A stretch of DNA of 64,000 nucleotides from Nemertoderma westbladi (taxonomy: Eukaryota; Animalia; Xenacoelomorpha): positions 5,531 to 69,530 of the forward strand of contig JAUCBJ010003901.1 of NCBI GenBank assembly GCA_032718475.1. The letters are read 5' to 3'. The notes under the pieces were generated by a model, which did not search any database, was not told the origin of the DNA, and saw only the letters and a list, made by a program, of their open reading frames with translations. Shown here one piece after another: positions 32,553 to 61,699 of the stretch (its first letter is position 1; each line of letters opens with the position of its first letter). The position numbers were made by a program, and so were the translations under genes.

Positions 32553-32584
32553 CTCTCATCACCACAGATTATATTCCCTTTCAG

Positions 32585-32643
32585 GGTCGGATATAGTATT
32601 CCAATGTTCTCGGGCTTCGTCATTCTATTTGTTTCAACACTCT
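32585..32643 (+). CDS. VMAT: Internal 59-nt coding exon of vesicular monoamine transporter: (R)VGYSIPMFSGFVILFVSTL(L)
   Basis: Acceptor TTCCCTTTCAG ends at 32584 and donor GTGAGT starts at 32644. The exon has a phase-2 start and phase-1 end. The peptide matches the conserved SLC18 segment RIGYxIPxFxGFxIxFxST. Its final T joins TG at 58583 to give TTG (Leu) in frame. Confidence 0.93.
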
Positions 32644-35600
32644 GTGAGTCAATTAATTATACCATATAATTATGTTTTTGTTTACAGTGTTCGCCTTTGA
32701 CGAGAACTACCCTTGTTTACTTATAGTGTGTTTTTGTTTACAGTGTTCGCCTTTGACGAGAACTTCCCTTGTTTACTTATAGTGTGTTTTTGTTTTCAGT
32801 GTTCGTCTTTGACGCGAACTACCCTTGTTTACTTATAGTGTGTTTTGTTTACAGTGTTCGCCTTTGGCGAGAACTACGCTTGTTTACTGATAGTGTATTT
32901 TTGTTTTCAGTGTTCGTCTTTGACGCGAACTACCCTTGTTTACTTATAGTGTATTTTTGTTTACAGTGTTCGCCTTTGGCGAGAACTACGCTTGTTTACT
33001 GATAGTGTATTTTTGTTTACAGTGTTCGCCTTTGACGAGAACTTCCCTTGTTTACTTATAGTGTGTTTTTGTTTTCAGTGTTCGTCTTTGACGCGAACTA
33101 CCCTTGTTTACTTATAGTGTATTTTTGTTTACAGTGTTCGCCTTTGGCGAGAACTATGCTTGTTTACTGATAGTGTATTTTTGTTTACAGTGTTCGCCTT
33201 TGGCGAGAACTACGCTTGTTTACTGATAGTGTATTTTTGTTTACAGTCTTCGCCTTTGGCGAGAATTACCCTAGTTTACTTATAGTGTGTTTTTGTTTTG
33301 TTTGCCTTTGGCGAGAACTACGCTTGTTTACTGATAGTGTATTTTTGGTTACAGTCTTCGCCTTTGGCGAGAATTACCCTTGTTTACTAATAGTGTGTTT
33401 TTGTTTTGTTTGCCTTTGGCGAGAACTACGCTTGTTTACTGATAGTGTATTTTTGTTTACAGTCTTCGCCTTTGGCGAGAATTACCCTTGTTTACTGATA
33501 GTGTGTTTTTGTTTTGTTTGCCTTTGGCGAGAACTACGCTTGTTTACTGATAGTGTATTTTTGTTTACAGTGTTCGCCTTTGTCGAGAACTACCCTTGTT
33601 TACTGATAGTGTGTTTTTGTTTTGTTTGCCTTCGGCGAGAACTACCCTTGTTTACTTATAGTGTGTTTTTGTCTATAGTGTTCGCCTTTGGCGAGAATTA
33701 CCCTTGTTTACTGATAGTGTGTTTTTGTTTTGTTTGCCTTTAGCGAGAACTACGCTTGTTTACTGATAGTGTATTTTTGTTTACAGTCTTCGCCTTTGGC
33801 GAGAATTACCCTTATTTACTGATAGTGTGTTTTTGTTTTGTTTGCCTTTGGCGAGAACTACGCTTGTTTACTGATAGTGTATTTTTGTTTACAGTCTTCG
33901 CCTTTGGCGAGAATTACCCTTGTTTACTGATAGTGTGTTTTTGTTTTGTTTGCCTTTGGCGAGAACTACGCTTGTTTACTGATAGTGTATTTTTGTTTAC
34001 AGTCTTCGCCTTTGGCGAGAATTATCCTAGTTTACTTATAGTGTGTTTTTGTTTTGTTTGCCTTTGGCGAGAACTACGCTTGTTTACTGATAGTGTATTC
34101 TTGTTTACAGTCTTCGCCTTTGGCGAGAATTACCCTTGTTTACTGATAGTGTGTTTTTGTTTTGTTTGCCTTTGGCGAGAACTACGCTTGTTTACTGATA
34201 GTGTATTTTTGTTTACAGTCTTCGCCTTTGGCGAGAATTACCCTTGTTTACTGATAGTGTGTTTTTGTTTTGTTTGCCTTTGGCGAGAACTACGCTTGTT
34301 TACTGATAGTGTATTTTTGTTTACAGTGTTCGCCTTTGTCGAGAACTACCCTTGTTTACTGATAGTGTGTTTTTGTTTTGTTTGCCTTTGGCGAGAACTA
34401 CGCTTGTTTACTGATAGTGTATTTTTGTTTACAGTGTTAGCCTTTGGCGAGAATTACCCTTGTTTACTGATAGTGTATTTTTATTTTGTTTGCCTTTGGC
34501 GAGAACTACGCTTGTTTACTGATAGTGTATTTTTGTTTACAGTGTTCGCCATTGGCGAGAATTACCCTTGTTTACTGATAGTGTGTTTTTGTTTTGTTTG
34601 CCTTTGGCGAGAACTACCCTTGTTTACTTATAGTATGTTTTTGTCTACAGTGTTCGCCTTTGGCGAGAATTACCCTTGTTTACTGATGGTGTGTTTTTGT
34701 TTTGTTTGCCTTTGGCGAGAACTACGCTTGTTTACTGATAGTGTATTTTTGTTTACAGTCTTCGCCTTTGGCGAGAATTACTCTTGTTTACTGATAGTAT
34801 ATGTTTGTTTTGTTTGCCTTTGGCGAGAACTACCCTTGTTTACTTATAGTGTGTTTTTGTCTACAGTGTTCGCCTTTGGCGAGAATTACCCTTGTTTACT
34901 GATAGTGTGTTTTTGTTTTGTTTGCCTTTGGCGAGAACTACGCTTGTTTACTGATAGTGTATTTTTGTTTACAGTCTTCGCCTTTGGCGAGAATTACCCT
35001 TGTTTACTGATAGTGTGTTTTTGTTTTGTTTGCCTTTGGCGAGAACTACGCTTGTTTACTGATAGTATATTTTTGTTTACAGTCTTCGCCTTTGGCGAGA
35101 ATTACCCTTGTTTACTGATAGTGTGTTTTTGTTTTGTTTGCCTTTGGCGAGAACTACGCTTGTTTACTGATAGTGTATTTTTGTTTACAGTCTTCGCCTT
35201 TGGCGAGAATTACCCTTGTTTACTGATAGTGTGTTTTTGTTTTGTTTGCCTTTGGCGAGAACTACGCTTGTTTACTGATAGTGTATTTTTGTTTACAGTC
35301 TTCGCCTTTGGCGAGAATTACCCTAGTTTACTTATAGGTGTTTTTGTTTTGTTTGCCTTTGGCGAGAATTACGCTTGTTTACTGATAGTGTATTTTTGTT
35401 TACAGTCTTCGCCTTTGGCGAGAATTACCCTTGTTTACTGATAGTGTGTTTTTGTTTTGTTTGCCTTTGGCGAGAACTACGCTTGTTTACTGATAGTGTG
35501 TTTTTGTTTTGTTTGCCTTCGGCGAGAACTACGCTTGTTTACTGATAGTGTATTTTTGTTTACAGTGTTCGCCTTTGGCGAGAACTACCCTTGTTTACTT

Positions 35601-38600
35601 ATAGTGTGTTTTTGTTTTGTTCGCCTTTGGCGAGAACTACCCTTGTTTACTGATAGTGTGTTTTTGTTTTGTTTGCCTTCGGCGAGAACTACGCTTGTCT
35701 ACTGATAGTGTATTTTTGTTTACAGTGTTCGCCTTTGGCGAGAACTACCCTTGTTTACTTATAGTGTGTTTTTGTTTACAGTGTTCGCCTTTGGCGAGAA
35801 CTACCCTTGTTTACTGATAGTGTGTTTTTGTTTTGTTTGCCTTCGGCGAGAACTACGCTTGTTTACTGATAGTGTATTTTTGTTTACAGTGTTCGCCTTT
35901 GTCGAGAACTACCCTTGTTTACTGATAGTGTGTTTTTGTTTTGTTTGCCTTCGGCGAGAACTACGCTTGTTTACTGATAGTGTATTTTTGTTTACAGTGT
36001 TCGCCTTTGACGAGAACTACCCTTGTTTACTTATAGTGTGTTTTTGTTTACAGTGTTCGCCTTTGGCGAGAACTACCCTTGTTTACTGATAGTGTGTTTT
36101 TGTTTTGTTTGCCTTCGGCGAGAACTACGCTTGTTTACTGATAGTGTATTTTTGTTTACAGTGTTCGCCTTTGTCGAGAACTACCCTTGTTTACTGATAG
36201 TGTGTTTTTGTTTTGTTTGCCTTCGGCGAGAACTACGCTTGTTTACTGATAGTGTATTTTTGTTTACAGTGTTCGCCTTTGTCGAGAACTACCCTTGTTT
36301 ACTGATAGTGTGTTTTTGTTTTGTTTGCCTTCGGCGAGAACTACGCTTGTTTACTGATAGTGTATTTTTGTTTACAGTGTTCGCCTTTGGCGAGAACTAC
36401 CCTTGTTTACTTATAGTGTGTTTTTGTCTACAGTGTTCGCCTTTGGCGAGAACTACCCTTGTTTACTTATAGTGTGTTTTTGTTTACAGTGTTCGCCTTT
36501 GACGAGAACTACCATTGTTTACTTATAGTGTATTTTTGTATACAGTGTTCGCCTTTGGCGAGAACTACCCTTGTTTACTTATAGTGTGTTTTTGTTTACA
36601 GTGTTCGCCTTTGGCGAGAACTACCGTTGTTTACTTATAGTGTGTTATTATTTACAGTGTTTGCCTTTGGCGAGAACTACCCTTGTTTACTTATAGTGTG
36701 TTTTTGTTTTGTTTGCCTTTGACGAGAACTACCCTTGTTTACTTATAGTGTGTTTTCGTTTACAGTGTTCGCCTTTGACGCGAACTACCCTTGTTTACTT
36801 ATAGTGTATTTTTGTTTACAGTGTTTGCCTTTGACGAGAACTACCCTTGTTTACTTATAGTGTGTTTTTGTTTACAGTGTTCGCCTTTGGCGAGAACTAC
36901 CGTTGTTTACTTATAGTGTGTTATTATTTACAGTGTTCGCCTTTGGCGAGAACTACCCTTGTTTACTTATAGTGTGTTTTTGTTTTGTTTGCCTTTGGCG
37001 AGAACTACGCTTGTTTATTTATAGTGTGTTTTTGTTTTCAGTGTTTGCCTTTGACGAGAACTACTCTTGTTTACTTATAGTGTGTTTTTGTTTACAGTGT
37101 TCGCCTTTGGCGAGAACTACCCTTGTTTACGTATAGTGTGTTTTTGTTTTTAGTGTTCGCCTTTGACGAGAACTTCCCTTGTTTACCTATAGTGTGTTTT
37201 TTTTACAGTGTTTGCCTTTGGCGAGAACTACCCTTGTTTACTTATAGTGTGTTTTTGTTTACAGTGTTCGCCTTTGGCGAGAACTACCCTTGTTTACTTA
37301 TAGTGTGTTTTTGTTTTGTTTGCCTTTGACGAGAACTACCCTTGTTTACTTATAGTGTGTTTTCGTTTACAGTGTTCGCCTTTGACGCGAACTACCCTTG
37401 TTTACTTATAGTGTATTTTTGTTTACAGTGTTCGCCTTTGATGAGAACTACCCTTGTTTACTTATAGTGTGTTTTTGTTTACAGTGTTCGCCTTTGGCGA
37501 GAACTACCCTTGTTTACTTATAGTGTGTTATTATTTACAGTGTTCGCCTTTGGCGAGAACTACCCTTGTTTACTTATAGTGTGTTTTTGTTTTGTTCGCC
37601 TTTGGCGATAACTACCCTTATTTACTTATAGTGTGTTTTTGTTTTCAGTGTTCGCCTTTGACGAGAACTACCCTTGTTTACTTATAGTGTGTTTTTGTCT
37701 ACAGTGTTCGCCTTTGGCGAGAACTACGCTTGTTTACTTATAGTGTGTTTTTGTTTACAGTGTTCGCCTTTGACGAGAACTACCCTTGTTTACTTATAGT
37801 GTGTTTTTTTTGTTTACAGTGTTCGCCTTTGGCGAGAACTACCCTTGTTTACTTATAGTGTATTTTTGTTTACAGTGTTCGCCTTTGACGAGAACTACCC
37901 TTGTTTACTTATAGTGTATTTTTGTTTACAGTGTTCGCCTTTGACGAGAACTACCCTTGTTTACTTATAGTTTGTTTTTGTTTACAGTGTTCGCCTTTGA
38001 CGAGAACTACCCTTGTTTACTTATACTGTGTTTTTTTGTTTACAGTGTTCGCCTTTGACGAGAACTACCCTTGTTTACTTATAGTGTGTTTTTGTTTTGT
38101 TTGCCTTTGACGAGAACTACCCTTGTTTACTTATAGTGTATTTTTGTTTACAGTGTTCGCCTTTGACGAGAACTACCCTTGTTTACTTATAGTGTGTTTT
38201 TGTTTACAGTGTTCGCCTTTGACGAGAACTACCCTTGTTTACTTATAGTGTGTTTTTTTGCTTACAGTGTTCGCCTTTGACGAGAACTACCCTTGTTTAC
38301 TTAGAGTGTATTTTTGTTTACAGTGTTCGCCTTTGACGAAAACTACCCTTGTTTACTTATAGTGTGTTTTTGTTTGCAGTGTTCGCCTTTGACGAGAACT
38401 ACCCTTGTTTACTTAGAGTGTATTTTTGTTTACAGTGTTCGCCTTTGACGAAAACTACCCTTGTTTACTTATAGTGTGTTTTTGTTTGCAGTGTTCGCCT
38501 TTGACGAGAACTACCCTTGTTTACTTATAGTGTGTTTTTGTTTACAGTGTTCGCCTTTGACGAGAACTACCCTTGTTTACTTATAGTGTGTTTTTGTTTT

Positions 38601-41600
38601 GTTTGCCTTTGGCGAGAACTACGCTTGTTTACTGATAGTGTATTTTTGTTTACAGTGTTCGCCTTTGACGAAAACTACCCTTGTTTACTTATAGTGTGTT
38701 TTTGTTTACAGTATTCGCCTTTGACGAGAACTACCCTTGTTTTCTTATAGTGTGTTTTTGTTTGCAGTGTTCGCCTTTGACGAGAACTACCCTTGTTTAC
38801 TTATAGTGTGTTTTTGTTTACAGTGTTCGCCTTTGACGAGAACTACCCTTGTTTACTTATAGTGTGTTTTTGTTTTGTTTGCCTTTGACGAGAACTACCC
38901 TTGTTTACTTATAGTGTGTTTTTGTTTGCAGTGTTCGCCTTTAACGAGAACTACCCTTGTTTACTTATAGTGTGTTTTTGTTTACAGTGTTCGCCTTTGA
39001 CGAGAACTACGCTTGTTTACTTATAGTGTGTTTTTGTTTTCAGTGTTCGCCTTTGACGAGAACTACTCTTGTTTACTTATAGTGTGTTTTTGTTTACAGT
39101 GTTCGCCTTTGGCGATAACTACCCTTGTTTACTTATAGTGTGTTTTTGTTTACAGTGTTCGCTTTTGGCGAGAACTACCCTTGTTTACTTATAGTGTGTT
39201 TTTGTTTTCAGTGTTCGCCTTTGACGAGAACTACCCTTGTTTACTTATAGTGTGTTTTTGTTTACAGTGTTCGCCTTAGGCGATAACTACCCTTGTTTAC
39301 TTATAGTGTGTTTTTGTTTACAGTGTTCGCCTTTGGCGAGAACTACCCTTGTTTACTTATAGTGTGTTTTTGTTTTCAGTGTTCGCCTTTGACGCGAACT
39401 ACCCTTGTTTACTTATAGTGTGTTTTTGTTTACAGTGTTCGCCTTAGGCGAGAACTACCCTTGTTTACTTATAGTGTGTTTTTGTTTACAGTGTTCGCCT
39501 TTGGCGAGAACTACCCTTGTTTACTTATAGTGTGTTTTTGTTTTCAGTGTTCGCCTTTGACGCGAACTACCCTTGTTTACTTATAGTGTGTTTTTGTTTA
39601 CAGTGTTTGCCTTTGGCGAGAACTACCCTTGTTTACTGATAGTGTGTTTTTGTTTACAGTGTTCGCCTTAGGCGAGAACTACCCTTGTTTACTTATAGTG
39701 TGTTTTTGTTTACAGTGTTCGCCTTTGGCGAGAACTACCCTTGTTTACTTATAGTGTGTTTTTGTTTACAGTGTTCGCCTTTGGCGAGAACTACCCTTGT
39801 TTACTTATAGTGTGTTTTTGTTTTCTGTGTTCGCCTTTGACGCGAACTACCCTTGTTTACTGATAGTGTGTTTTTGTTTTCAGTGTTCGCCTTTGAGGAG
39901 AACTACCCTTGTTTACTTATAGTGTGTTTTTGTTTACAGTGTTCGCCTTTGGCGAGAACTACCCTTGTTTACTTATAGTATGTTTTTGTTTACAGTGTTC
40001 GCCTTAGGCGAGAACTACCCTTGTTTACTTATAGTGTGTTTTTGTTTACAGTGTTCGCCTTTGGCGAGAACTACCCTTGTTTACTTATATTGTGTTTTTG
40101 TTTTGTTTGCCTTTGACAAGAACTACCCTTGTTTACTTATAGTGTGTTTTTGTTTTGTTTTCCTTTGACGAGAACTACACTTGTTTACTTATAGTGTATT
40201 TTTGTTTACAGTGTTCGCCTTTGACGAGAACTACGCTTGTTTACTTATAGTGTGTTTTTGTTTTCAGTGTTCGCCTTTGACGAGAACTACTCTTGTTTAC
40301 TTATAGTGTGTTTTTGTTTACAGTGTTCGCCTTTGGCGATAACTACCCTTGTTTACTTATAGTGTGTTTTTGTTTTCAGTGTTCGCCTTTGGCGATAACT
40401 ACCCTTGTTTACTTATAGTGTGTTTTTGTTTTTAGTGTTCGCCTTTGACGAGAACTTCCCTTGTTTACTTATAGTGTGTTTTTGTTTACAGCGTTCGCCT
40501 TTGGCGACAACTACCCTTGTTTACTTATAGTGTGTTTTTGTTTTGTTCGCCTTCGGCGAGAACTACCCTTGTTTACTTATAGTGTGTTTTTGTTTTCAGT
40601 GTTCGCCTTTGACGAGAACTACCCTTGTTTATTTATAGTGTGTTTTTGTCTACAGTGTTCGCCTTTGGCGAGAACTACCCTTGTTTACTGATAGTGTGTT
40701 TTTGTTTACAGTGTTCGCCTTTGTCGAGAACTACCCTTGTTTACTTATTGTGTGTTTTTGTTTTTAGTGTTCGCCTTTGACGAAAACTACCCTTGTTTAC
40801 TTATAGTGTGTTTTTGTTTACAGCGTTCGCCTTTGGCGACAACTACCCTTGTTTACTTATAGTGTGTTTTTGTTTTGTTCGCCTTCGGCGAGAACTACCC
40901 TTGTTTACTTATAGTGTGTTTTTGTTTGCAGTGTTCGCCTTTGACGAGAACTACCCTTGTTTACTTATAGTGTGTTTTTGTTTACAGTGTTCGCCTTTGA
41001 CGAGAACTACCCTTGTTTACTTATAGTGTGTTTTTGTTTTGTTTGCCTTTGGCGAGAACTACGCTTGTTTACTGATAGTGTATTTTTGTTTACAGTGTTC
41101 GCCTTTGACGAAAACTACCCTTGTTTACTTATAGTGTGTTTTTGTTTACAGTATTCGCCTTTGACGAGAACTACCCTTGTTTTCTTATAGTGTGTTTTTG
41201 TTTGCAGTGTTCGCCTTTGACGAGAACTACCCTTGTTTACTTATAGTGTGTTTTTGTTTACAGTGTTCGCCTTTGACGAGAACTACCCTTGTTTACTTAT
41301 AGTGTGTTTTTGTTTTGTTTGCCTTTGACGAGAACTACCCTTGTTTACTTATAGTGTGTTTTTGTTTACAGTGTTCGCCTTTAACGAGAACTACCCTTGT
41401 TTACTTATAGTGTGTTTTTGTTTACAGTGTTCGCCTTTGACGAGAACTACGCTTGTTTACTTATAGTGTGTTTTTGTTTTCAGTGTTCGCCTTTGACGAG
41501 AACTACTCTTGTTTACTTATAGTGTGTTTTTGTTTACAGTGTTCGCCTTTGGCGATAACTACCCTTGTTTACTTATAGTGTGTTTTTGTTTACAGTGTTC

Positions 41601-44600
41601 GCTTTTGGCGAGAACTACCCTTGTTTACTTATAGTGTGTTTTTGTTTTCAGTGTTCGCCTTTGACGAGAACTACCCTTGTTTACTTATAGTGTGTTTTTG
41701 TTTACAGTGTTCGCCTTAGGCGATAACTACCCTTGTTTACTTATAGTGTGTTTTTGTTTACAGTGTTCGCCTTTGGCGAGAACTACCCTTGTTTACTTAT
41801 AGTGTGTTTTTGTTTTCAGTGTTCGCCTTTGACGCGAACTACCCTTGTTTACTTATAGTGTGTTTTTGTTTACAGTGTTCGCCTTAGGCGAGAACTACCC
41901 TTGTTTACTTATAGTGTGTTTTTGTTTACAGTGTTCGCCTTTGGCGAGAACTACCCTTGTTTACTTATAGTGTGTTTTTGTTTTCTGTGTTCGCCTTTGA
42001 CGCGAACTACCCTTGTTTACTGATAGTGTGTTTTTGTTTTCAGTGTTCGCCTTTGAGGAGAACTACCCTTGTTTACTTATAGTGTGTTTTTGTTTACAGT
42101 GTTCGCCTTTGGCGAGAACTACCCTTGTTTACTTATAGTGTGTTTTTGTTTACAGTGTTCGCCTTAGGCGAGAACTACCCTTGTTTACTTATAGTGTGTT
42201 TTTGTTTACAGTGTTCGCCTTTGGCGAGAACTACCCTTGTTTACTTATATTGTGTTTTTGTTTTGTTTGCCTTTGACAAGAACTACCCTTGTTTACTTAT
42301 AGTGTGTTTTTGTTTTGTTTTCCTTTGACGAGAACTACACTTGTTTACTTATAGTGTATTTTTGTTTACAGTGTTCGCCTTTGACGAGAACTACGCTTGT
42401 TTACTTATAGTGTGTTTTTGTTTTCAGTGTTCGCCTTTGACGAGAACTACTCTTGTTTACTTATAGTGTGTTTTTGTTTACAGTGTTCGCCTTTGGCGAT
42501 AACTACCCTTGTTTACTTATAGTGTGTTTTTGTTTTCAGTGTTCGCCTTTGGCGATAACTACCCTTGTTTACTTATAGTGTGTTTTTGTTTTTAGTGTTC
42601 GCCTTTGACGAGAACTTCCCTTGTTTACTTATAGTGTGTTTTTGTTTACAGCGTTCGCCTTTGGCGACAACTACCCTTGTTTACTTATAGTGTGTTTTTG
42701 TTTTGTTCGCCTTCGGCGAGAACTACCCTTGTTTACTTATAGTGTGTTTTTGTTTTCAGTGTTCGCCTTTGACGAGAACTACCCTTGTTTATTTATAGTG
42801 TGTTTTTGTCTACAGTGTTCGCCTTTGGCGAGAACTACCCTTGTTTACTGATAGTGTGTTTTTGTTTACAGTGTTCGCCTTTGTCGAGAACTACCCTTGT
42901 TTACTTATTGTGTGTTTTTGTTTTTAGTGTTCGCCTTTGACGAAAACTACCCTTGTTTACTTATAGTGTGTTTTTGTTTACAGCGTTCGCCTTTGGCGAC
43001 AACTACCCTTGTTTACTTATAGTGTGTTTTTGTTTTGTTCGCCTTCGGCGAGAACTACCCTTGTTTACTTATAGTGTGTTTTTGTTTTCAGTGTTCGCCT
43101 TTGACGAGAACTACCCTTGTTTATTTATAGTGTGTTTTTGTCTACAGTGTTCGCCTTTGGCGAGAACTACCCTTGTTTTCTTATAGTGTGTTTTTGTTTG
43201 CAGTGTTCGCCTTTGACGAGAACTACCCTTGTTTACTTATAGTGTGTTTTTGTTTACAGTGTTCGCCTTTGACGAGAACTACCCTTGTTTACTTATAGTG
43301 TGTTTTTGTTTTGTTTGCCTTTGACGAGAACTACCCTTGTTTACTTATAGTGTGTTTTTGTTTACAGTGTTCGCCTTTAACGAGAACTACCCTTGTTTAC
43401 TTATAGTGTGTTTTTGTTTACAGTGTTCGCCTTTGACGAGAACTACGCTTGTTTACTTATAGTGTGTTTTTGTTTTCAGTGTTCGCCTTTGACGAGAACT
43501 ACTCTTGTTTACTTATAGTGTGTTTTTGTTTACAGTGTTCGCCTTTGGCGATAACTACCCTTGTTTACTTATAGTGTGTTTTTGTTTACAGTGTTCGCTT
43601 TTGGCGAGAACTAACCTTGTTTACTTATAGTGTGTTTTTGTTTTCAGTGTTCGCCTTTGACGAGAACTACCCTTGTTTACTTATAGTGTGTTTTTGTTTA
43701 CAGTGTTCGCCTTAGGCGATAACTACCCTTGTTTACTTATAGTGTGTTTTTGTTTACAGTGTTCGCCTTTGGCGAGAACTACCCTTGTTTACTTATAGTG
43801 TGTTTTTGTTTTCAGTGTTCGCCTTTGACGCGAACTACCCTTGTTTACTTATAGTGTGTTTTTGTTTACAGTGTTCGCCTTAGGCGAGAACTACCCTTGT
43901 TTACTTATAGTGTGTTTTTGTTTACAGTGTTCGCCTTTGGCGAGAACTACCCTTGTTTACTTATAGTGTGTTTTTGTTTTCAGTGTTCGCCTTTGACGCG
44001 AACTACCCTTGTTTACTTATAGTGTGTTTTTGTTTACAGTGTTTGCCTTTGGCGAGAACTACCCTTGTTTACTGATAGTGTGTTTTTGTTTACAGTGTTC
44101 GCCTTAGGCGAGAACTACCCTTGTTTACTTATAGTGTGTTTTTGTTTACAGTGTTCGCCTTTGGCGAGAACTACCCTTGTTTACTTATAGTGTGTTTTTG
44201 TTTACAGTGTTCGCCTTTGGCGAGAACTACCCTTGTTTACTTATAGTGTGTTTTTGTTTTCTGTGTTCGCCTTTGACGCGAACTACCCTTGTTTACTGAT
44301 AGTGTGTTTTTGTTTTCAGTGTTCGCCTTTGAGGAGAACTACCCTTGTTTACTTATAGTGTGTTTTTGTTTACAGTGTTCGCCTTTGGCGAGAACTACCC
44401 TTGTTTACTTATAGTGTGTTTTTGTTTACAGTGTTCGCCTTAGGCGAGAACTACCCTTGTTTACTTATAGTGTGTTTTTGTTTACAGTGTTCGCCTTTGG
44501 CGAGAACTACCCTTGTTTACTTATATTGTGTTTTTGTTTTGTTTGCCTTTGACAAGAACTACCCTTGTTTACTTATAGTGTGTTTTTGTTTTGTTTTCCT

Positions 44601-47600: not shown

Positions 47601-50600
47601 AGAACTACGCTTGTTTACTGATAGTGTATTTTTGTTTACAGTGTTCGCCTTTGACGAAAACTACCCTTGTTTACTTATAGTGTGTTTTTGTTTACAGTAT
47701 TCGCCTTTGACGAGAACTACCCTTGTTTTCTTATAGTGTGTTTTTGTTTGCAGTGTTCGCCTTTGACGAGAACTACCCTTGTTTACTTATAGTGTGTTTT
47801 TGTTTACAGTGTTCGCCTTTGACGAGAACTACCCTTGTTTACTTATAGTGTGTTTTTGTTTTGTTTGCCTTTGACGAGAACTACCCTTGTTTACTTATAG
47901 TGTGTTTTTGTTTACAGTGTTCGCCTTTAACGAGAACTACCCTTGTTTACTTATAGTGTGTTTTTGTTTACAGTGTTCGCCTTTGACGAGAACTACGCTT
48001 GTTTACTTATAGTGTGTTTTTGTTTTCAGTGTTCGCCTTTGACGAGAACTACTCTTGTTTACTTATAGTGTGTTTTTGTTTACAGTGTTCGCCTTTGGCG
48101 ATAACTACCCTTGTTTACTTATAGTGTGTTTTTGTTTACAGTGTTCGCTTTTGGCGAGAACTACCCTTGTTTACTTATAGTGTGTTTTTGTTTTCAGTGT
48201 TCGCCTTTGACGAGAACTACCCTTGTTTACTTATAGTGTGTTTTTGTTTACAGTGTTCGCCTTAGGCGATAACTACCCTTGTTTACTTATAGTGTGTTTT
48301 TGTTTACAGTGTTCGCCTTTGGCGAGAACTACCCTTGTTTACTTATAGTGTGTTTTTGTTTTCAGTGTTCGCCTTTGACGCAAACTACCCTTGTTTACTT
48401 ATAGTGTGTTTTTGTTTACAGTGTTCGCCTTAGGCGAGAACTACCCTTGTTTACTTATAGTGTGTTTTTGTTTACAGTGTTCGCCTTTGGCGAGAACTAC
48501 CCTTGTTTACTTATAGTGTGTTTTTGTTTTCAGTGTTCGCCTTTGACGCGAACTACCCTTGTTTACTTATAGTGTGTTTTTGTTTACAGTGTTTGCCTTT
48601 GGCGAGAACTACCCTTGTTTACTGATAGTGTGTTTTTGTTTACAGTGTTTGCCTTAGGCGAGAACTACCCTTGTTTACTTATAGTGTGTTTTTGTTTACA
48701 GTGTTCGCCTTTGGCGAGAACTACCCTTGTTTACTTATAGTGTGTTTTTGTTTACAGTGTTCGCCTTTGTCGAGAACTACCCTTGTTTACTTATAGTGTG
48801 TTTTTGTTTTCAGTGTTCGCCTTTGACGCGAACTACCCTTGTTTACTGATAGTGTGTTTTTGTTTTCAGTGTTCGCCTTTGAGGAGAACTACCCTTGTTT
48901 ACTTATAGTGTGTTTTTGTTTGCAGTGTTCGCCTTTGACGAGAACTACCCTTGTTTACTTATAGTGTGTTTTTGTTTACAGTGTTCGCCTTTGGCGAGAA
49001 CTACCCTTGTTTACTTATAGTGTGTTTTTGTTTACAGTGTTCGCCTTAGGCGAGAACTACCCTTGTTTACTTATAGTGTGTTTTTGTTTACAGTGTTCGC
49101 CTTTGGCGAGAACTACCCTTGTTTACTTGTAGTGTGTTTTTGTTTTGTTTGCCTTTGGCGAGAACTACGCTTGTTTACTGATAGTGTGTTTTTGTTTACA
49201 GTGTTCGCCTTTGGCGAGAACTACCCTTGTTTACTTATAGTGTGTTTTTGTTTACAGTGTTCGCCTTAGGCGAGAACTACCCTTGTTTACTTATAGTGTG
49301 TTTTTGTTTGCAGTGTTCGCCTTTGACGAGAACTACCCTTGTTTACTTATAGTGTGTTTTTGTTTACAGTGTTCGCCTTTGGCGAGAACTACCCTTGTTT
49401 ACTTATAGTGTGTTTTTGTTTACAGTGTTCGCCTTTGACGAGAACTACCCTTGTTTACTTATAGTGTGTTTTTGTTTACAGTGTTCGCCTTTGACGAGAA
49501 CTACCCTTGTTTACTTATAGTGTGTTTTTGTTTTGTTTGCCTTTGACGAGAACTACCCTTGTTTACTTATAGTGTGTTTTTGTTTACAGTGTTCGCCTTT
49601 AACGAGAACTACCCTTGTTTACTTATAGTGTGTTTTTGTTTACAGTGTTCGCCTTTGACGAGAACTACGCTTGTTTACTTATAGTGTGTTTTTGTTTTCA
49701 GTGTTCGCCTTTGACGAGAACTACTCTTGTTTACTTATAGTGTGTTTTTGTTTACAGTGTTCGCCTTTGGCGATAACTACCCTTGTTTACTTATAGTGTG
49801 TTTTTGTTTACAGTGTTCGCTTTTGGCGAGAACTACCCTTGTTTACTTATAGTGTGTTTTTGTTTTCAGTGTTCGCCTTTGACGAGAACTACCCTTGTTT
49901 ACTTATAGTGTGTTTTTGTTTACAGTGTTCGCCTTAGGCGATAACTACCCTTGTTTACTTATAGTGTGTTTTTGTTTACAGTGTTCGCCTTTGGTGAGAA
50001 CTACCTTTGTTTACTTATAGTGTGTTTTTGTTTTCAGTGTTCGCCTTTGACGCGAACTACCCTTGTTTACTTATAGTGTGTTTTTGTTTACAGTGTTTCG
50101 CCTTAGGCGAGAACTACCCTTGTTTACTTATAGTGTGTTTTTGTTTACAGTGTTCGCCTTTGGCGAGAACTACCCTTGTTTACTTATAGTGTGTTTTTGT
50201 TTTCAGTGTTCGCCTTTGACGCGAACTACCCTTGTTTACTTATAGTGTGTTTTTGTTTACAGTGTTTGCCTTTGGCGAGAACTACCCTTGTTTACTGATA
50301 GTGTGTTTTTGTTTACAGTGTTCGCCTTAGGCGAGAACTACCCTTGTTTACTTATAGTGTGTTTTTGTTTACAGTGTTCGCCTTTGGCGAGAACTACCCA
50401 TGTTTACTTATAGTGTGTTTTTGTTTACAGTGTTCGCCTTTGGCGAGAACTACCCTTGTTTACTTATAGTGTGTTTTTGTTTTCAGTGTTCGCCTTTGAC
50501 GCGAACTACCCTTGTTTACTGATAGTGTGTTTTTGTTTTCAGTGTTCGCCTTTGAGGAGAACTACCCTTGTTTACTTAGTGTGTTTTTGTTTGCAGTGTT

Positions 50601-53600
50601 CGCCTTTGACGAGAACTACCCTTGTTTACTTATAGTGTGTTTTTGTTTACAGTGTTCGCCTTTGGCGAGAACTACCCTTGTTTACTTATAGTGTGTTTTT
50701 GTTTACAGTGTTCGCCTTAGGCGAGAACTACCCTTGTTTACTTATAGTGTGTTTTTGTTTACAGTGTTCGCCTTTGGCGAGAACTACCCTTGTTTACTTA
50801 TAGTGTGTTTTTGTTTTGTTTGCCTTTGGCGAGAACTACGCTTGTTTACTGATAGTGTGTTTTTGTTTACAGTGTTCGCCTTTGGCGAGAACTACCCTTG
50901 TTTACTTATAGTGTGTTTTTGTTTACAGTGTTCGCCTTAGGCGAGAACTACCCTTGTTTACTTATAGTGTGTTTTTGTTTGCAGTGTTCGCCTTTGACGA
51001 GAACTACCCTTGTTTACTTATAGTGTGTTTTTGTTTACAGTGTTCGCCTTTGGCGAGAACTACCCTTGTTTACTTATAGTGTGTTTTTGTTTACAGTGTT
51101 CGCCTTAGGCGAGAACTACCCTTGTTTACTTATAGTGTGTTTTTGTTTGCAGTGTTCGCCTTTGACGAGAACTACCCTTGTTTACTTATAGTGTGTTTTT
51201 GTTTACAGTGTTCGCCTTTGGCGAGAACTACCCTTGTTTACTTATAGTGTGTTTTTGTTTACAGTGTTCGCCTTTGGCGAGAACTACCCTTGTTTACTTA
51301 TAGTGTGTTTTTGTTTACAGTGTTCGCCTTAGGCGAGAACTACCCTTGTTTACTTATAGTGTGTTTTTGTTTACAGTGTTCGCCTTTGGCGAGAACTACC
51401 CTTGTTTACTTATAGTGTGTTTTTGTTTGCAGTGTTCGCCTTTGACGAGAACTACCCTTGTTTACTTATAGTGTGTTTTTGTTTACAGTGTTCGCCTTTG
51501 GCGAGAACTACCCTTGTTTACTTATAGTGTGTTTTTGTTTACAGTGTTCGCCTTAGGCGAGAACTACCCTTGTTTACTTATAGTGTGTTTTTGTTTACAG
51601 TGTTCGCCTTTGGCGAGAACTACCCTTGTTTACTTATAGTGTGTTTTTGGTTTGTTTGCCTTTGGCGAGAACTACGCTTGTTTACTGATAGTGTGTTTTT
51701 GTTTACAGTGTTCGCCTTTGACGAGAACTACCCTTGTTTACTTATAGTGTGTTTTTGTTTTGTTTGCCTTTGACGAGAACTACCCTTGTTTACTTATAGT
51801 GTATTTTTGTTTACAGTGTTTGCCTTTAACGAGAACTACCCTTGTTTACTTATAGTGTGTTTTTGTTTACAGTGTTCGCCTTTGACGAGAACTACGCTTG
51901 TTTACTTATAGTGTGTTTTTGTTTTCAGTGTTCGCCTTTGGCGATAGTTTCTTTGACGATTGTTTACTTATAGTGTGTTTTTGTTTACAGTGTTCGCCTT
52001 TGGCGATAACTACCCTTGTTTACTTATAGTGTGTTTTTGTTTTTAGTGTTCGCCTTTGACGAGAACTTCCCTTGTTTACATATAGTGTGTTTTTGTTTTG
52101 TTTGCCTTTGGCGAGAACTACGCTTGTTTACTGATAGTGTGTTTTTGTTTACAGTGTTCGCCTTTGACGAGAACTACCCTTGTTTTCTTATAGTGTGTTT
52201 TTGTTTGCAGTGTTCGCCTTTGACGAGAACTACCCTTGTTTACTTATAGTGTGTTTTTGTTTACAGTGTTCGCCTTTGACAAGAACTACCCTTGTTTACT
52301 TATAGTGTGTTTTTGTTTTGTTTGCCTTTGACGAGAACTACCCTTGTTTACTTATAGTGTGTTTTTGTTTTGTTTGCCTTTGACGAGAACTACACTTGTT
52401 TACTTATAGTGTATTTTTGTTTACAGTGTTCGCCTTTGACGAGAACTACGCTTGTTTACTTATAGTGTGTTTTTGTTTTCAGTGTTCGCCTTTGACGAGA
52501 ACTACTCTTGTTTACTTATAGTGTGTTTTTGTTTACAGTGTTCGCCTTTGGCGATAACTACCCTTGTTTACTTATAGTGTGTTTTTGTTTACAGTGTTCG
52601 CCTTTGGCGATAACTACCCTTGTTTACTTATAGTGTGTTTTTGTTTTTAGTGTTCGCCTTTGACGAGAACTTCCCTTGTTTACTTATAGTGTGTTTTTGT
52701 TTACAGCGTTAGCCTTTGGCGACAACTACCCTTGTTTACTTATAGTGTGTTTTTGTTTTGTTCGCCTTCGGCGAGAACTACCCTTGTTTACTTATAGTGT
52801 GTTTTTGTTTTCAGTGTTCGCCTTTGACGAGAACTACCCTTGTTTATTTATAGTGTGTTTTTGTCTACAGTGTTCGCCTTTGGCGAGAACTACCCTTGTT
52901 TACTGATAGTGTGTTTTTGTTTACAGTGTTCGCCTTTGTCGAGAACTACCCTTGTTTACTTATAGTGTGTTTTTGTTTTCAGTGTTCGCCTTTGACGCGA
53001 ACTACCCTTGTTTACTTATAGTGTGTTTTTGTTTACAGTGTTTCGCCTTAGGCGAGAACTACCCTTGTTTACTTATAGTGTGTTTTTGTTTACAGTGTTC
53101 GCCTTTGGCGAGAACTACCCTTGTTTACTTATAGTGTGTTTTTGTTTTCAGTGTTCGCCTTTGACGCGAACTACCCTTGTTTACTTATAGTGTGTTTTTG
53201 TTTACAGTGTTTGCCTTTGGCGAGAACTACCCTTGTTTACTGATAGTGTGTTTTTGTTTACAGTGTTCGCCTTAGGCGAGAACTACCCTTGTTTACTTAT
53301 AGTGTGTTTTTGTTTACAGTGTTCGCCTTTGGCGAGAACTACCCATGTTTACTTATAGTGTGTTTTTGTTTACAGTGTTCGCCTTTGGCGAGAACTACCC
53401 TTGTTTACTTATAGTGTGTTTTTGTTTACAGTGTTCGCCTTTGGCGAGAACTACCCTTGTTTACTTATAGTGTGTTTTTGTTTTCAGTGTTCGCCTTTGA
53501 CGCGAACTACCCTTGTTTACTGATAGTGTGTTTTTGTTTTCAGTGTTCGCCTTTGAGGAGAACTACCCTTGTTTACTGATAGTGTGTTTTTATTTTCAGT

Positions 53601-56600
53601 GTTCGCCTTTGAGGAGAACTACCCTTGTTTACTTATAGTGTGTTTTTGTTTACAGTGTTCGCCTTTGGCGATAACTACCCTTGTTTACTTATAGTGTGTT
53701 TTTGTTTACAGTGTTCGCCTTTGGCTATAACTACCCTTGTTTACTTATAGTGTGTTTTTGTTTTTAGTGTTCGCCTTTGACGAGAACTTCCCTTGTTTAC
53801 TTATAGTGTGTTTTTGTTTTGTTTGCCTTTGGCGAGAACTACGCTTGTTTACTGATAGTGTGTTTTTGTTTACAGTGTTCGCCTTTGACGAGAACTACCC
53901 TTGTTTTCTTATAGTGTGTTTTTGTTTGCAGTGTTCGCCTTTGACGAGAACTACCCTTGTTTACTTATAGTGTGTTTTTGTTTACAGTGTTCGCCTTTGA
54001 CGAGAACTACCCTTGTTTACTTATAGTGTGTTTTTGTTTTGTTTGCCTTGGACGAGAACTACCCTTGTTTACTTATAGTGTGTTTTTGTTTTGTTTGCCT
54101 TTGACGAGAACTACACTTGTTTACTTATAGTGTATTTTTGTTTACAGTGTTCGCCTTTGACGAGAACTACGCTTGTTTACTTATAGTGTGTTTTTGTTTT
54201 CAGTGTTGCCTTTGACGAGAACTACTCTTGTTTACTTATAGTGTGTTTTTGTTTACAGTGTTCGCCTTTGGCGATAACTACCCTTGTTTACTTATAGTGT
54301 GTTTTTGTTTACAGTGTTCGCCTTTGGCGATAACTACCCTTGTTTACTTATAGTGTGTTTTTGTTTTTAGTGTTCGCCTTTTACGATAACTTCCCTTGTT
54401 TACTTATAGTGTGTTTTTGTTTACAGCGTTCGCCTTTGGCGACAACTACCCTTGTTTACTTAAAGTGTGTTTTTGTTTTGTTCGCCTTCGGCGAGAACTA
54501 CCCTTGTTTACTTATAGTGTGTTTTTGTTTTCAGTGTTCGCCTTTGACGAGAACTACCCTTGTTTACTTATAGTGTGTTTTTGTCTACAGTGTTCGCCTT
54601 TGGCGAGAACTACCCTTGTTTACTGATAGTGTGTTTTTGTTTACAGTGTTCGCCTTTGGCGATAACTACCCTTGTTTACTTATAGTGTGTTTTTGTTTTT
54701 AGTGTTCGCCTTTGACGAGAACTTCCCTTGTTTACTTATAGTGTGTTTTTGTTTACAGCGTTAGCCTTTGGCGACAACTACCCTTGTTTACTTATAGTGT
54801 GTTTTTGTTTTGTTCGCCTTCGGCGAAAACTACCCTTGTTTACTTATAGTGTGTTTTTGTTTTCAGTGTTCGCCTTTGACGAGAACTACCCTTGTTTATT
54901 TATAGTGTGTTTTTGTCTACAGTGTTCGCCTTTGGCGAGAACTACCCTTGTTTACTGATAGTGTGTTTTTGTTTACAGTGTTCGCCTTTGTCGAGAACTA
55001 CCCTTGTTTACTTATAGTGTGTTTGTGTTTTTAGTGTTCGCCTTTGACGAAAACTACCCTTGTTTACTTATAGTGTGTTTTTGTTTACAGTGTTCGCCTT
55101 AGGCGAGAACTACCCTTGTTTACTTATAGTGTGTTTTTGTTTACAGTGTTCGCCTTTGGTGAGAACTACCCTTGTTTACTTATAGTGTGTTTTTGTTTTC
55201 AGTGTTCGCCTTTGACGAGAACTACCCTTGTTTACTTATAGTGTGTTTTTGTTTACAGTGTTCGCCTTAGGCGAGAACTACCCTTGTTTACTTATAGTGT
55301 ATTTTTGTTTACAGTGTTCGCCTTTGGCGAGAACTACCCTTGTTTACTTATAGTGTGTTTTTGTTTTCAGTGTTCGCCTTTGACGCGAACTACCCTTGTT
55401 TACTCATAGTGTGTTTTTGTTTACAGTGTTTGCCTTTGGCGAGAACTACCCTTGTTTACTGATAGTGTGTTTTTGTTTTCAGTGTTCGCCTTTGAGGAGA
55501 ACTACCCTTGTTTACTTATAGTGTGTTTTTGTTTACAGTGTTCGCCTTTGGCGATAACTACCCTTGTTTACTTATAGTGTGTTTTTGTTTACAGTGTTCG
55601 CCTTTGGCGATAACTACCCTTGTTTACTTATAGTGTGTTTTTGTTTTTAGTGTTCGCCTTTGACGAGAACTTCCCTTGTTTACTTATAGTGTGTTTTTGT
55701 TTTGTTTGCCTTTGGCGAGAACTACGCTTGTTTACTGATAGTGTGTTTTTGTTTACAGTGTTCGCCTTTGACGAGAACTACCCTTGTTTTCTTATAGTGT
55801 GTTTTTGTTTGCAGTGTTCGCCTTTGACGAGAACTACCCTTGTTTACTTATAGTGTGTTTTTGTTTACAGTGTTCGCCTTTGACGAGAACTACCCTTGTT
55901 TACTTATAGTGTGTTTTTGTTTTGTTTGCCTTTGACGAGAACTACCCTTGTTTACTTATAGTGTGTTTTTGTTTTGTTTGCCTTTGACGAGAACTACACT
56001 TGTTTACTTATAGTGTATTTTTGTTTACAGTGTTCGCCTTTGACGAGAACAACGCTTGTTTACTTATAGTGTGTTTTTCTTTTCAGTGTTCGCCTTTGAC
56101 GAGAACTACTCTTGTTTACTTATAGTGTGTTTTTGTTTACAGTGTTCGCCTTTGGCGATAACTACCCTTGTTTACTTATAGTGTGTTTTTGTTTACAGTG
56201 TTCGCCTTTGGCGATAACTACCCTTGTTTACTTATAGTGTGTTTTTGTTTTTAGTGTTCGCCTTTGACGAGAACTTCCCTTGTTTACTTATAGTGTGTTT
56301 TTGTTTACAGCGTTCGCCTTTGGCGACAACTACCCTTGTTTACTTATAGTGTGTTTTTGTTTTGTTCGCCTTCGGCGAGAACTACCCTTGTTTACTTATA
56401 GTGTGTTTTTGTTTTCAGTGTTCGCCTTTGACGAGAACTACCCTTGTTTACTTATAGTGTGTTTTTGTCTACAGTGTTCGCCTTTGGCGAGAACTACCCT
56501 TGTTTACTGATAGTGTGTTTTTGTTTACAGTGTTCGCCTTTGTCGAGAACTACCCTTGTTTACTTATTGTGTGTTTTTGTTTTTAGTGTTCGCCTTTGAC

Positions 56601-58582
56601 GAAAACTACCCTTGTTTACTTATAGTGTGTTTTTGTTTACAGTGTTCGCCTTAGGCGAGAACTACCCTTGTTTACTTATAGTGTGTTTTTGTTTACAGTG
56701 TTCGCCTTTGGCGAGAACTACCCTTGTTTACTTATAGTGTGTTTTTGTTTTCAGTGTTCGCCTTTGACGAGAACTACCCTTGTTTACTTATAGTGTGTTT
56801 TTGTTTACAGTGTTCGCCTTAGGCGAGAACTACCCTTGTTTACTTATAGTGTGTTTTTGTTTACAGTGTTCGCCTTTGGCGAGAACTACCCTTGTTTACT
56901 TATAGTGTGTTTTTGTTTTCAGTGTTCGCCTTTGACGCGAACTACCCTTGTTTACTTATAGTGTGTTTTTGTTTACAGTGTTTGCCTTTGGCGAGAACTA
57001 CCCTTGTTTACTGATAGTGTGTTTTTGTTTTCAGTGTTCGCCTTTGAGGAGAACTACCCTTGTTTACTTATAGTGTGTTTTTGTTTACAGTGTTCGCCTT
57101 TGGCGAGAACTACCCTTGTTTACTTATAGTGTGTTTTTGTTTACAGTGTTCGCCTTTGGCGAGAACTACCCTTGTTTACTTATAGTGTGTTTTTGTTTTC
57201 AGTGTTCGCCTTTGACGAGAACTACCCTTGTTTACTTATAGTGTGTTTTTGTTTACAGTGTTCGCCTTAGGCGAGAACTACCCTTGTTTACTTATAGTGT
57301 GTTTTTGTTTACAGTGTTCGCCTTTGACGAGAACTACTCTTGTTTACTTATAGTGTGTTTTCGTTTACAGTGTTCGCCTTTGGCGATAACTACCCTTGTT
57401 TACTTATAGTGTGTTTTTGTTTACAGTGTTCGCCTTTGGCGATAACTACCCTTGTTTACTTATAGTGTGTTTTTGTTTTTAGTGTTCGCCTTTGACGAGA
57501 ACTACCCTTGTTTACTTATAGTGTGTTTTTGTTTTGTTTGCCTTTGACGAGAACTACCCTTGTTTACTTATAGTGTGTTTTTGTTTTGTTTGCCTTTGAC
57601 GAGAACTACCCTTGTTTACTTATAGTGTATTTTTGTTTACAGTGTTCGCCTTTGACGAGAACTACGCTTGTTTACTTATAGTGTGTTTTTGTTTTCAGTG
57701 TTCGCCTTTGACGAGAACTACTCTTGTTTACTTATAGTGTGTTTTTGTTTACAGTGTTCGCCTTTGTCGAGAACTACCCTTGTTTACTTATTGTGTGTTT
57801 TTGTTTTGTTTGCCTTTGGCGAGAACTACGCTTGTTTACTGATAGTGTGTTTTTGTTTACAGTGTTCGCCTTTGACGAGAACTACCCTTGTTTTCTTATA
57901 GTGTGTTTTTGTTTGCAGTGTTCGCCTTTGACGAGAACTACCCTTGTTTACTTATAGTGTGTTTTTGTTTACAGTGTTCGCCTTTGACGAGAACTACCCT
58001 TGTTTACTTATAGTGTGTTTTTGTTTTGTTTGCCTTTGACGAGAACTACCCTTGTTTACTTATAGTGTGTTTTTGTTTTGTTTGCCTTTGACGAGAACTA
58101 CCCTTGTTTACTTATAGTGTATTTTTGTTTACAGTGTTCGCCTTTGACGAGAACTACGCTTGTTTACTTATAGTGTGTTTTTGTTTTCAATGTTCGCCTT
58201 TGACGAGAACTACTCTTGTTTACTTATAGTGTGTTTTTGTTTACAGTGTTCGCCTTTGTCGAGAACTACCCTTGTTTACTTATTGTGTGTTTTTGTTTTT
58301 AGTGTTCGCCTTTGACGAAAACTACCCTTGTTTACTTATAGTGTGTTTTTGTTTACAGTGTTCGCCTTAGGCGAGAACTACCCTTGTTTACTTATAGTGT
58401 GTTTTTGTTTACAGTGTTCGCCTTTGGCGAGAACTACCCTTGTTTACTTATAGTGTGTTTTTGTTTTCAGTGTTCGCCTTTGACGAGAACTACCCTTGTT
58501 TACTGATAGTGTGTTTTTGTCTACAGTGTTCGCCTTTGGCGAGAACTACCCTTGTTTACTTATAGTGTGTTTTTGTTTACAG
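32644..58582 (+). other. 25.9-kb GT-AG intron of VMAT made almost entirely of the 56-bp satellite
   Basis: GTGAGT at 32644 and TTTTTGTTTACAG ending at 58582. Joining the flanking exons restores the contiguous VMAT sequence FVSTL-LFAFGENY. Only about 27 nt (32644-32670) is non-repetitive. Confidence 0.9.
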
Positions 58583-58619
58583 TGTTCGCCTTTGGCGAGA
58601 ACTACGCTTGTTTACTGAT
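32671..58619 (+). repeat. 56-bp satellite array (roughly 460-470 monomers) derived from the VMAT acceptor/exon junction; consensus GTGTGTTTTTGTTTACAG|TGTTCGCCTTTG(G/A)CGAGAACTAC(C/G)CTTGTTTACT(T/G)ATA
   Basis: Continuous 56-bp periodicity with 52-bp variants that lack ACAG. The last monomer is the functional acceptor plus the codons for (L)[12 protein letters not shown] and runs into unique exon sequence at 58620. Confidence 0.99.
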
Positions 58620-58759
58620 CGCTCGAATGCTCCAGGGTATCGGTAGTTCCTGCAGCAGTGTCAGCGGAATGGGAATGTTGGCGGCCCGATACCCTGACGA
58701 CCAGGAACGTGGCAACGCCATGGGATTCGCTTTAGGGGGTCTGGCTCTGGGCGTCCTGA
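58583..58759 (+). CDS. VMAT: Internal 177-nt coding exon of VMAT: (L)[58 protein letters not shown]
   Basis: Contains the VMAT-type signature [21 protein letters not shown]...DDxERGNxMGxALGGLAxGVL. Acceptor TTTACAG ends at 58582 and donor GTAAGT starts at 58760; phase 1/1. Confidence 0.97.
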
Positions 58760-58879
58760 GTAAGTTCAAACTGTTTCTGTTCTTATTGTGTTATTGTTGT
58801 TATTTTTTGTGCGGTGGGTCAGGTGTCCTCAGTAAGTTATTCTAACTATTATATTCATTAACATTTTGTTGTGTTTCAG

Positions 58880-58969
58880 TTGGGCCACCGTTTGGAGGAG
58901 TAATGTATCAATTTGTTGGAAAAAGTTCCCCATTTATTGTTTTGGCTCTCCTGGCATTAGGCGATGGAT
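58880..58969 (+). CDS. VMAT: Internal 90-nt coding exon of VMAT: (I)[29 protein letters not shown]
   Basis: Acceptor GTGTTTCAG ends at 58879 and donor GTAAGT starts at 58970. A|TT gives Ile, continuing GVL-IGPPFGG, and the peptide matches the conserved GPPFGxxxYxFVGKxxPFxxLA..L.DG segment. Confidence 0.96.
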
Positions 58970-59449
58970 GTAAGTTTGAACTACATTATCATTTACATTA
59001 CTTTATCATTATTCTAAGACTATATATTATAGAATTGAGTTCACTAGTACACTCTACCAACTACACACGTTCGTGGGGCCATCGCGCAGGACGAGGCTCA
59101 GTTATTAGATACAGATTAAAATTGAGCCGTTCTACCCCAAAATTGGTACTTAAGAAATTTAAATAAATAATTAAGAAAATTTAACCAAACTTTTACTTAA
59201 AAAAAAACTTTCGCATTGGCAGCTTGGCATCGATGCCATAGAAGTCCACAGTCAAACTACTCAAAAAAAATCAATGCATTCTTCAGACCTCGGGTCTCGC
59301 TCATCGGTTAGTCCAGTTTGCCCGTAGCGCTAGCGCAGTAGCGATACCAAAAGTCGAGGTCGCCAACGACACTGCGACAGGCAGAGGCGGTTACCTTGAT
59401 GGCGAGTTGGTACCTTAGGTGGTATATAATTAATCGTTCCCCTGTGTTT

Positions 59450-60675: not shown

Positions 60676-60684
60676 CGATCCTAG

Positions 60685-61176
60685 TGTTCATAATTGTGGT
60701 TGACTATGTTCTACGCATGTCCTTAGATCATCATAATGATGATGGGGTGATGATAACTCCACCTACTGGCTCCAGAAGTCAAGGAAATCCTGCCAAGTAC
60801 ATAACTGATCTAGACTTTGCTGATGACTTAGGAGTACTCTCAGAATCACTAGAGGGAGCCCAACGGCTCCTCAGCTCATTAGAACATGCTGCTTCTAGTG
60901 TTGGTCTTTTTATTAACTCCAGAAAGACCAAAATTTTGACAGTTAACTTTGAAAGTCCTCAGCAAGTCTCTGACCGGATGAGCATAAGCTCAAAGGATGG
61001 TATGCTTGAGCATGTGGACGACTTCTGTTACCTGGGATCATGGATCCGGAAGTCAGGTGAGGATCTTCGAATACGTAAGGGAAAGGCATGTGCAGCCTTG
61101 AATAGGCTTTCCAGGATTTGGAAGTCACCGAGAATTAATCGGAAACTTAAGGTCCGATTATTTAGAGCAGCAGTAG
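60685..61176 (+). mobile_element. Second partial copy of the same LINE RT region (DLDFADDL ... VDDFCYLGSWI ... LSRIWKS ... KLKVRLFRA)
   Basis: Near-identical to 59938-60233 but retains about 200 bp (60932-61130) that is missing from the first copy. Confidence 0.9.
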
Positions 61177-61699
61177 CACTGTACCACTGTAACAGTACCG
61201 GTACCGTACCATAAAACATATGTTTAATAAGATTAAGGTACCATACCGATACATGATATGGCTGAATATTGCGATATCGCAATTCAAACATCACTCAGGC
61301 AATTGCAGGACTCCCGACCCTACCGCACGTACCAATACTCAGATAATGCAGTAGCAGTACCTACTGACAGACTGACTACCAGCCTAGAAAGCTAGGCCTA
61401 CCACATACATCAACAGCAGTGAGCAGTACCGGTACTGAGTACAGGCATCTCATGGTACCGGTGTCGTACTCTGAACTCTGCAATCTGGAAATGCTGGAAT
61501 GGCTGAAAGTGAAATAGGCCTACCACACTTCCCAAGGTCACATTATTGCTGCATTGTACACGTATTGCTTTATTTCAAACCCACCTGATATATCCTGCAG
61601 TCTCCTAGCAACCAGCTGATGCCAAGCCTAATAATTTTCGGATAGATAAATTTTATTATAACTGCAAGACAGTTACACAGATGCTGCATGAAGACCCCA

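Follow-up and report, generated by a model that had tools for sequence, protein, structure and literature searches.

In a window of 64,000 nucleotides (nt) from the xenacoelomorph Nemertoderma westbladi (assembly GCA_032718475.1, contig JAUCBJ010003901.1, positions 5,531 to 69,530 of the forward strand), we found that one intron of a VMAT gene is filled by a 26-kb tandem satellite built from the gene's own 3' splice site and the start of the following exon. Our reading, to which we give a probability of roughly 0.7, is that this satellite (array 2) is a giant "mirage", the name given in amphioxus to repeats that span exon borders (PMC3087553), that it sits in an expressed gene whose transcript uses the last of the many acceptors, likely by way of exon definition, and that it is tolerated as a neutral expansion. 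The window as a whole consists of two satellites and a short unique tail, and the gene runs through it as one open frame across three exons (32585-32643, 58583-58759 and 58880-58969), which give 108 amino acids when spliced. The features on which the argument depends are as follows.

32585-32643, + strand: VMAT exon A, 59 nt, sharing an open frame with exons B and C and contained in the spliced contig X4-25
32644-32670, + strand: unique start of the intron, 27 nt, donor GTGAGT; a DNA contig of run X2 covers 32524-32725
32671-58619, + strand: array 2, 469 tandem units that combine the acceptor with the exon start; an AG is present in 382 (381 decoys plus the real site) and missing from 87; higher-order blocks 2.16-2.44 kb apart
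58565-58582, + strand: real acceptor, the 5' part of the last array-2 unit; the X4 contig has 32643 joined to 58583
58583-58759, + strand: VMAT exon B, 177 nt, of which the first 37 form the 3' part of the array's final unit; it is followed by the donor GTAAGT at 58760
58760-58879, + strand: intron between exons B and C, 120 nt, ordinary GT..AG, skipped in contig X4-25
58880-58969, + strand: VMAT exon C, 90 nt; the following exon lies outside the window

The use of the last acceptor was established from public sequencing runs, of which six are listed and four, from three studies, contain the stretch (X1-X4); these four were compared at both ends of the intron. In contig X4-25 (1846 nt), window positions 32582-32643 occupy record positions 1321-1382, 58583-58759 occupy 1144-1320 and 58880-58969 occupy 1054-1143, and the loose end before 58583 is identical to window 32614-32643. 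Since the exons stand at adjacent record positions and the loose end is that of exon A, 32643 is joined to 58583, from where the contig continues into the unique part of the exon; the GT..AG intron 58760-58879 is skipped as well. The VMAT gene is thus expressed and its last acceptor is used, and array 2 does not prevent regular splicing, as witnessed by one correctly spliced contig from one run. An earlier note, made from the letters of this DNA, had named the junction 32643-58583 as the check on its proposal; that junction is present in X4-25, and the outcome expected of a pseudogene did not occur. The exons differ from the window at three positions, all synonymous and shared by the contigs of X2, X3 and X4. 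X4 has no contig on 58565-58582 (the intronic part of the unit) or on 32651-32725, which we did not count as evidence.

The same note had recognized the gene as VMAT, and the peptide of exon B bears this out, with its best matches to VMAT2 structures (E 4e-22), followed by VMAT1 (9e-18) and the vesicular acetylcholine transporter (VAChT, 8e-13); judged by these similarities, the gene is closer to VMAT (SLC18A1/A2 type) than to VAChT. The portion in the window comprises three exons (108 amino acids), and the X4 contig extends beyond it at both ends. In 103 of 110 full-length alignments with homologs the spliced 108-residue peptide shows no gap; among the matches listed (the best 120 of 865), a nemertodermatid VMAT has the highest identity, 87% over 108 amino acids, and the others reach 77-82%, values that do not amount to a phylogenetic placement.

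The intron (32644-58582) measures 25,939 nt, of which only 27 nt (32644-32670) are unique. A unit of array 2 begins with a U-rich tract of 18 nt that closes with YAG, continues with the 37 nt that open the exon at 58583 and ends in one linker base, and the final unit is the authentic intron-exon border, with unique sequence resuming at 58620. Thus the extent of the array from 32671 to 58619, the make-up of its monomer, the identity of the last unit with the real border, the 27 unique nt and the 177-nt exon with its GTAAGT donor are all as the earlier note had described them. Most units are 56 nt long (377), 79 are of 52 nt and 13 have other lengths; the exon-derived part of the commonest unit, like the exon start itself, encodes 12 residues. 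An AG precedes the exon-start-like sequence in 382 of the 469 units (357 CAG, 25 TAG) and is absent from the other 87, mostly of the 52-nt type, so that the hundreds of decoys claimed in the earlier note hold good as 381 AG-bearing copies, not 468. With the real acceptor counted in each case, 186 of the 382 AG units are identical to it across 18 nt and 103 across 40 nt, and four carry the exact 37-nt exon part.

Mean identity among the units is about 94%, with 132 distinct units among 466 segments and a longest exact repeat of 1,292 nt; hundreds of units at such identity are far beyond chance. The first 4 kb of the array are nearer to the exon than the rest (1.6-1.75 differences in 28 nt, against 2.7-3.1 elsewhere), with 19 of 73 units identical to it over 28 nt, whereas the middle has drifted and is arranged in recurring blocks 2.16-2.44 kb apart, that is, homogenized inside with the edges excluded, a feature of mirages. 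Units closest to the exon in the first 4 kb, together with a drifted middle, fit one duplication of the border followed by internal homogenization. At about 33200-36000 the 56-nt units (with AG) and 52-nt units (without) alternate strictly, and through the resulting 108-nt dimer a reading frame stays free of stops for as much as 1,653 nt.

What would follow if a decoy were used can be read from the array. All 381 decoys meet a stop before the donor at 58760, at a median distance of 93 nt (305 within 100 nt, the longest 1653 nt); the three nearest upstream acceptors, ending at 58526, 58470 and 58414, reach TGA, TAG and TGA, respectively, 90-93 nt downstream, just as the earlier note had stated. 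This bears on the thought that splicing is in fact leaky, with early or near-terminal decoys often used as they leave the polymerase, their products decayed, the clean transcript a mere survivor and the array a cost to VMAT output. Premature stops from every decoy would make such errors invisible at steady state, 102 decoys are identical to the real acceptor over 40 nt, and the polymerase passes decoys as much as 26 kb before it arrives at the real site. Nevertheless, we regard leaky splicing as unlikely: a splice into an internal unit finds no nearby donor to end the exon, and no aberrant mRNA is reported, in the accessible parts of the sources, for the amphioxus mirages or for the repeated donors of human F7 intron 7 (PMC3087553, PMC3902484, PMC1557585).

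The scarcity of donors is the second property of the array. In its 25.9 kb it holds two GTRAG and no GTRAGT, while the unique tail (58970-64000) has 1.99 GTRAG per kb. Only 15 of the 382 acceptors therefore have a GTRAG within 300 nt: twelve lie near two mutant units, and the last three, near the real donor, stand 289, 233 and 177 nt from 58760. The two mutant units are the following.

49994-49999, + strand: mutant unit with donor-like GTGAGA, at which pseudo-exons of 68-292 nt could end, every one of them running into a stop; its use is hypothetical
55159-55164, + strand: second mutant unit with the same donor-like GTGAGA; its use is hypothetical

Both of these sites arose by a C-to-T change at a CpG, and they are possible poison pseudo-exons.

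Four further candidates were tried and rejected. RNA structure does not appear to select the acceptor, the openness of the real one being greater than that of 41 of 60 sampled decoys and thus not exceptional. Nor does the real site have a better branch point, its CTTAT type being the common one, found in 298 of the 381 AG-bearing units that have a preceding unit. Recursive splicing was dismissed as there are no AG-GT points, the base after the unit's AG being T or C in all 377 units of 56 nt. As for selection against donors in array 2, a GTRAG could arise by either of two single changes, one of them seen twice and the other never; many positions are just as invariant, and this gives such selection no support.

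In long animal introns, exons are recognized as acceptor-donor pairs. Exon definition would pair an acceptor with the nearest downstream donor, and array 2 holds almost none; consequently the contest would be limited to the last two or three acceptors, the nearest would win, and the length of the array would be irrelevant. The proposal in the earlier note that the last acceptor is picked as the nearest to the donor at 58760 is therefore the best explanation we have, although its picture of hundreds of equal competitors was overstated, given how few acceptors have any GTRAG within reach. As to origin, a single 56-bp duplication across the border may have been followed by expansion and homogenization through unequal exchange. 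Tolerance would come from the fact that added units bring acceptors and no donors, and rare mis-splices would carry a stop and be removed by nonsense-mediated decay. Array 2 is most likely neutral passenger DNA.

Several points weigh against this reading. On the RNA side there is a single assembled contig, from a run that carries the label "DNA?"; we read it as RNA because GT..AG introns are skipped in it. Contigs lose rare forms and decay hides stop-bearing ones, so that X4-25 reports the main form and not an error rate; moreover, among the compared runs the X4 individual is represented by this RNA only, and the count of 469 units is that of the window. Both mutant-unit donors pair with U1 better than the real donors do (-8.1 against -5.4 to -5.6 kcal/mol, by a crude duplex score). 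Exon definition is only inferred, and the same gene has a short intron of 120 nt that is possibly intron-defined. Furthermore, the acceptors 56 and 112 nt upstream of the real one would also give exons of less than 300 nt, and hence a proximity rule or exon enhancers must be added. Neutrality, finally, is an assumption.

The opposite of neutrality would be that array 2 is a selected control element whose copy number tunes the level or timing of VMAT by delaying transcription, by mis-splicing or by way of chromatin. Transcription of a neuronal gene would presumably take many minutes longer with about 58 kb of satellite in two neighbouring introns, and the unit is present at high summed depth in both DNA samples, at ratios that differ between them. 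Yet summed depth does not stand for copy number; mirages occur in unrelated genes with no effect reported in the accessible parts of the sources (PMC3087553, PMC3902484); and the pattern of variants is that of ordinary repeat turnover. We hold such a role to be very improbable, and the suggestion in the earlier note of a copy-number-tuned control of VMAT output found no support, as no result bears on control.

Obviously, all of this presupposes that the array is real and large. A DNA contig of X2 over 32524-32725 links exon A, the unique intron and unit 1, and unit-to-unit joints of array 2 are present in X1, X2 and X3, so that tandem monomers occur in the DNA runs of two samples. X1 is identical to the window and may come from its source sample, in which case X3 represents an independent one. 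The unique contigs of all three DNA runs start at 58590, which is what graph assembly would give at the edge of a repeat. Summed depth on the unit relative to the flank is about 70-140x in X1 and X2 and about 420-530x in X3, rough ratios that are not copy numbers; as a measure of copy number summed contig depth was rejected, X1 and X3 even being without a unique contig over exon A. From these observations array 2 looks like a genuine, evolving satellite.

One may still suppose that the mirage, though real, is far shorter and that the assembler inflated or misplaced it. The length of array 2 rests on the window assembly, the array being spanned by no single read or contig from the compared runs; the ratios of X1 and X2 stay under 469, and the link from array to real acceptor likewise depends on the window, given where the contigs of the DNA runs begin. 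Set against this, units so diverse, with no exact repeat beyond 1,292 nt, are unlike a collapsed or stuttered unit, the ratio of X3, another sample, is several times higher (if only roughly determined), and there are the bridge into unit 1 in X2 and the tandem joints in X1, X2 and X3. An inflated assembly thus seems to us quite unlikely.

Array 2 is not the only satellite of this gene. The earlier note was right in its description of array 2 and missed the array in the preceding intron (1-32552), which also looks junction-derived.

1-32552, + strand: array 1, a 54-nt tandem satellite that extends beyond the start of the window and has 584 units inside it; it fills the preceding intron and is spliced out in the X4 contig
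32553-32584, + strand: unique end of that intron, 32 nt with the acceptor of exon A (AG ending at 32584)

Exon A (59 nt, with unique flanks of 32 and 27 nt) accordingly sits between two satellites totalling about 58 kb. A second CAG at 32561-32568, 16 nt upstream of its acceptor, is unused in the spliced contig. Array 1 contains 540 donor-like GTAGG sites and no unique island in 1-32552, and a search of it with a simple pattern, which recovered the real acceptors of exons A and B and missed that of C, gave no acceptor-like sites. Directly before GTAGG, the unit carries a 10-nt exact match to nt 3-12 of exon A, in register; shuffles reproduced such a match in 4 of 5000 cases within the first 30 nt and in 19 of 5000 over the whole exon, a post hoc comparison for an array whose 5' edge lies outside the window. 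Taken together, the last piece of array 1 and the unique tail (32518-32584) have the form of an entire GT..AG intron of 67 nt.

In one DNA contig of X2, the unit at 32509 is preceded directly by 29 nt from the upstream exon, identical to the loose end that X4 has ahead of exon A; this suggests that array 1 starts at or near the upstream exon. Another X2 contig conflicts with it, having at least 237 AT-rich unique letters before 32502; there may be unique DNA in between, or the unit may also occur elsewhere. The contig at 32509 is without the last dozen bases of the upstream exon that are seen in the spliced contig, as in a deletion form or an internal exon fragment. Array 1 likely originated from the duplication of a whole short intron with 12 nt of exon, after which the acceptor was lost, as in the 87 array-2 units without AG. 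It is likely the mirror case of array 2, with donors and without acceptors, and, to go by its sequence, probably a second border-derived satellite beside it.

This gave rise to a bolder and more tentative thought, on which we would not insist: that two adjacent introns each became a satellite (26 to more than 32 kb) from the gene's own borders, and that each was able to grow only as one half of an exon signal, array 2 as acceptors and array 1 as donors, the latter likely from the whole 67-nt intron and 12 nt of exon with the acceptor lost. If true, the turning of splice-border repeats into satellites would follow a rule, namely growth as a half-signal, and the locus would be a natural test bed in which an acceptor is chosen from the exon side though hundreds of identical sites were transcribed minutes earlier.

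Downstream of exon C the unique tail holds elements of other kinds. The segment 59065-59300 is a very high-copy interspersed repeat, with a summed depth above 100,000 in the DNA runs; its start looks inverted with respect to 63610-63640, and by eye it resembles a miniature inverted-repeat transposable element. Broken reverse-transcriptase frames of a retrotransposon without long terminal repeats lie at 59470-61200; a stretch of about 250 nt is duplicated within them, near 59940 and 60685. In the intron after exon C there are short tandem repeats with units of 10-20 nt at 61810-61900 and 61960-62140, the second with inverted copies.

Array 2 amounts to an extreme natural experiment on 3' splice-site choice. 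Under "first come, first served", as under 5'-to-3' scanning, an early acceptor is expected, whereas exon definition predicts the last, and it is the last that appears in the assembled transcript. The locus also illustrates how an intron can reach the size of a satellite from a small duplication of its border, a matter relevant to intron gigantism. Additionally, assembly and annotation can be misled here, since masking of repeats would conceal 37 nt of coding exon.

The earlier note had left open whether junction-derived repeats have been described; they have, as amphioxus mirages (PMC3087553, PMC3902484) and as the variable number of tandem repeats (VNTR) of human F7 (PMC1557585), with 2-9 units, always fewer than ten, in the published cases consulted. 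[quoted passage not shown] In PGBD5 the mirage has 2-7 units (PMC3902484). Unit lengths are reported as 10-160 bp, and splicing is left undisturbed (PMC3087553, PMC3902484). Array 2 resembles them in its tandem copies of a border, its end unit that is the real border and its normal mRNA, in the splice signal present in many units and not in all, in edges that escape homogenization and in a unit length within that range. Five of the six mirage features tested were found in it; for the sixth, length variation between haplotypes or cells, the summed depth ratios differ between samples, depth being no copy number. It departs from them in having 469 units over 26 kb, against 3-6 in BflGb6 and 2-7 in PGBD5, in its higher-order blocks and in the second giant array of the adjacent intron. 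An amphioxus mirage is reportedly also present in Adh3 (Canestro et al. 2002).

In the 37-bp VNTR of F7 intron 7 there are 5-9 donors of identical sequence, and splicing takes place only at the one closest to the exon (PMC1557585). As in array 2, a terminal unit (there the first) spans the exon border, and the site adjoining the exon prevails over pseudo-sites that are identical and yet silent; it differs in lying on the donor side, with 5-9 sites and tests by mutants, whereas array 2 lies on the acceptor side and is about 50 times larger. Array 1, the 5' edge of which is outside the window, may be the closer analogue. Human CBS 844ins68 (the subject of Romano et al. 2002) is a duplicated acceptor, reportedly of the 3' end of an intron with the exon start, as one extra copy and not as an array. 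Satellites in the introns of Drosophila Y genes are not known to be copies of the gene's own splice border, and they reach megabases. The Y fertility genes with such satellite-filled giant introns nevertheless share with array 2 that long satellite arrays are transcribed and removed as introns (PMC11207136, PMC6508613). Our literature search, which left most subscription papers outside its coverage, found no satellite-sized mirage. In kind, then, array 2 is a known thing, a mirage, and calls for no new mechanism; what is new beside the amphioxus and F7 examples is its scale and the second array next to it.

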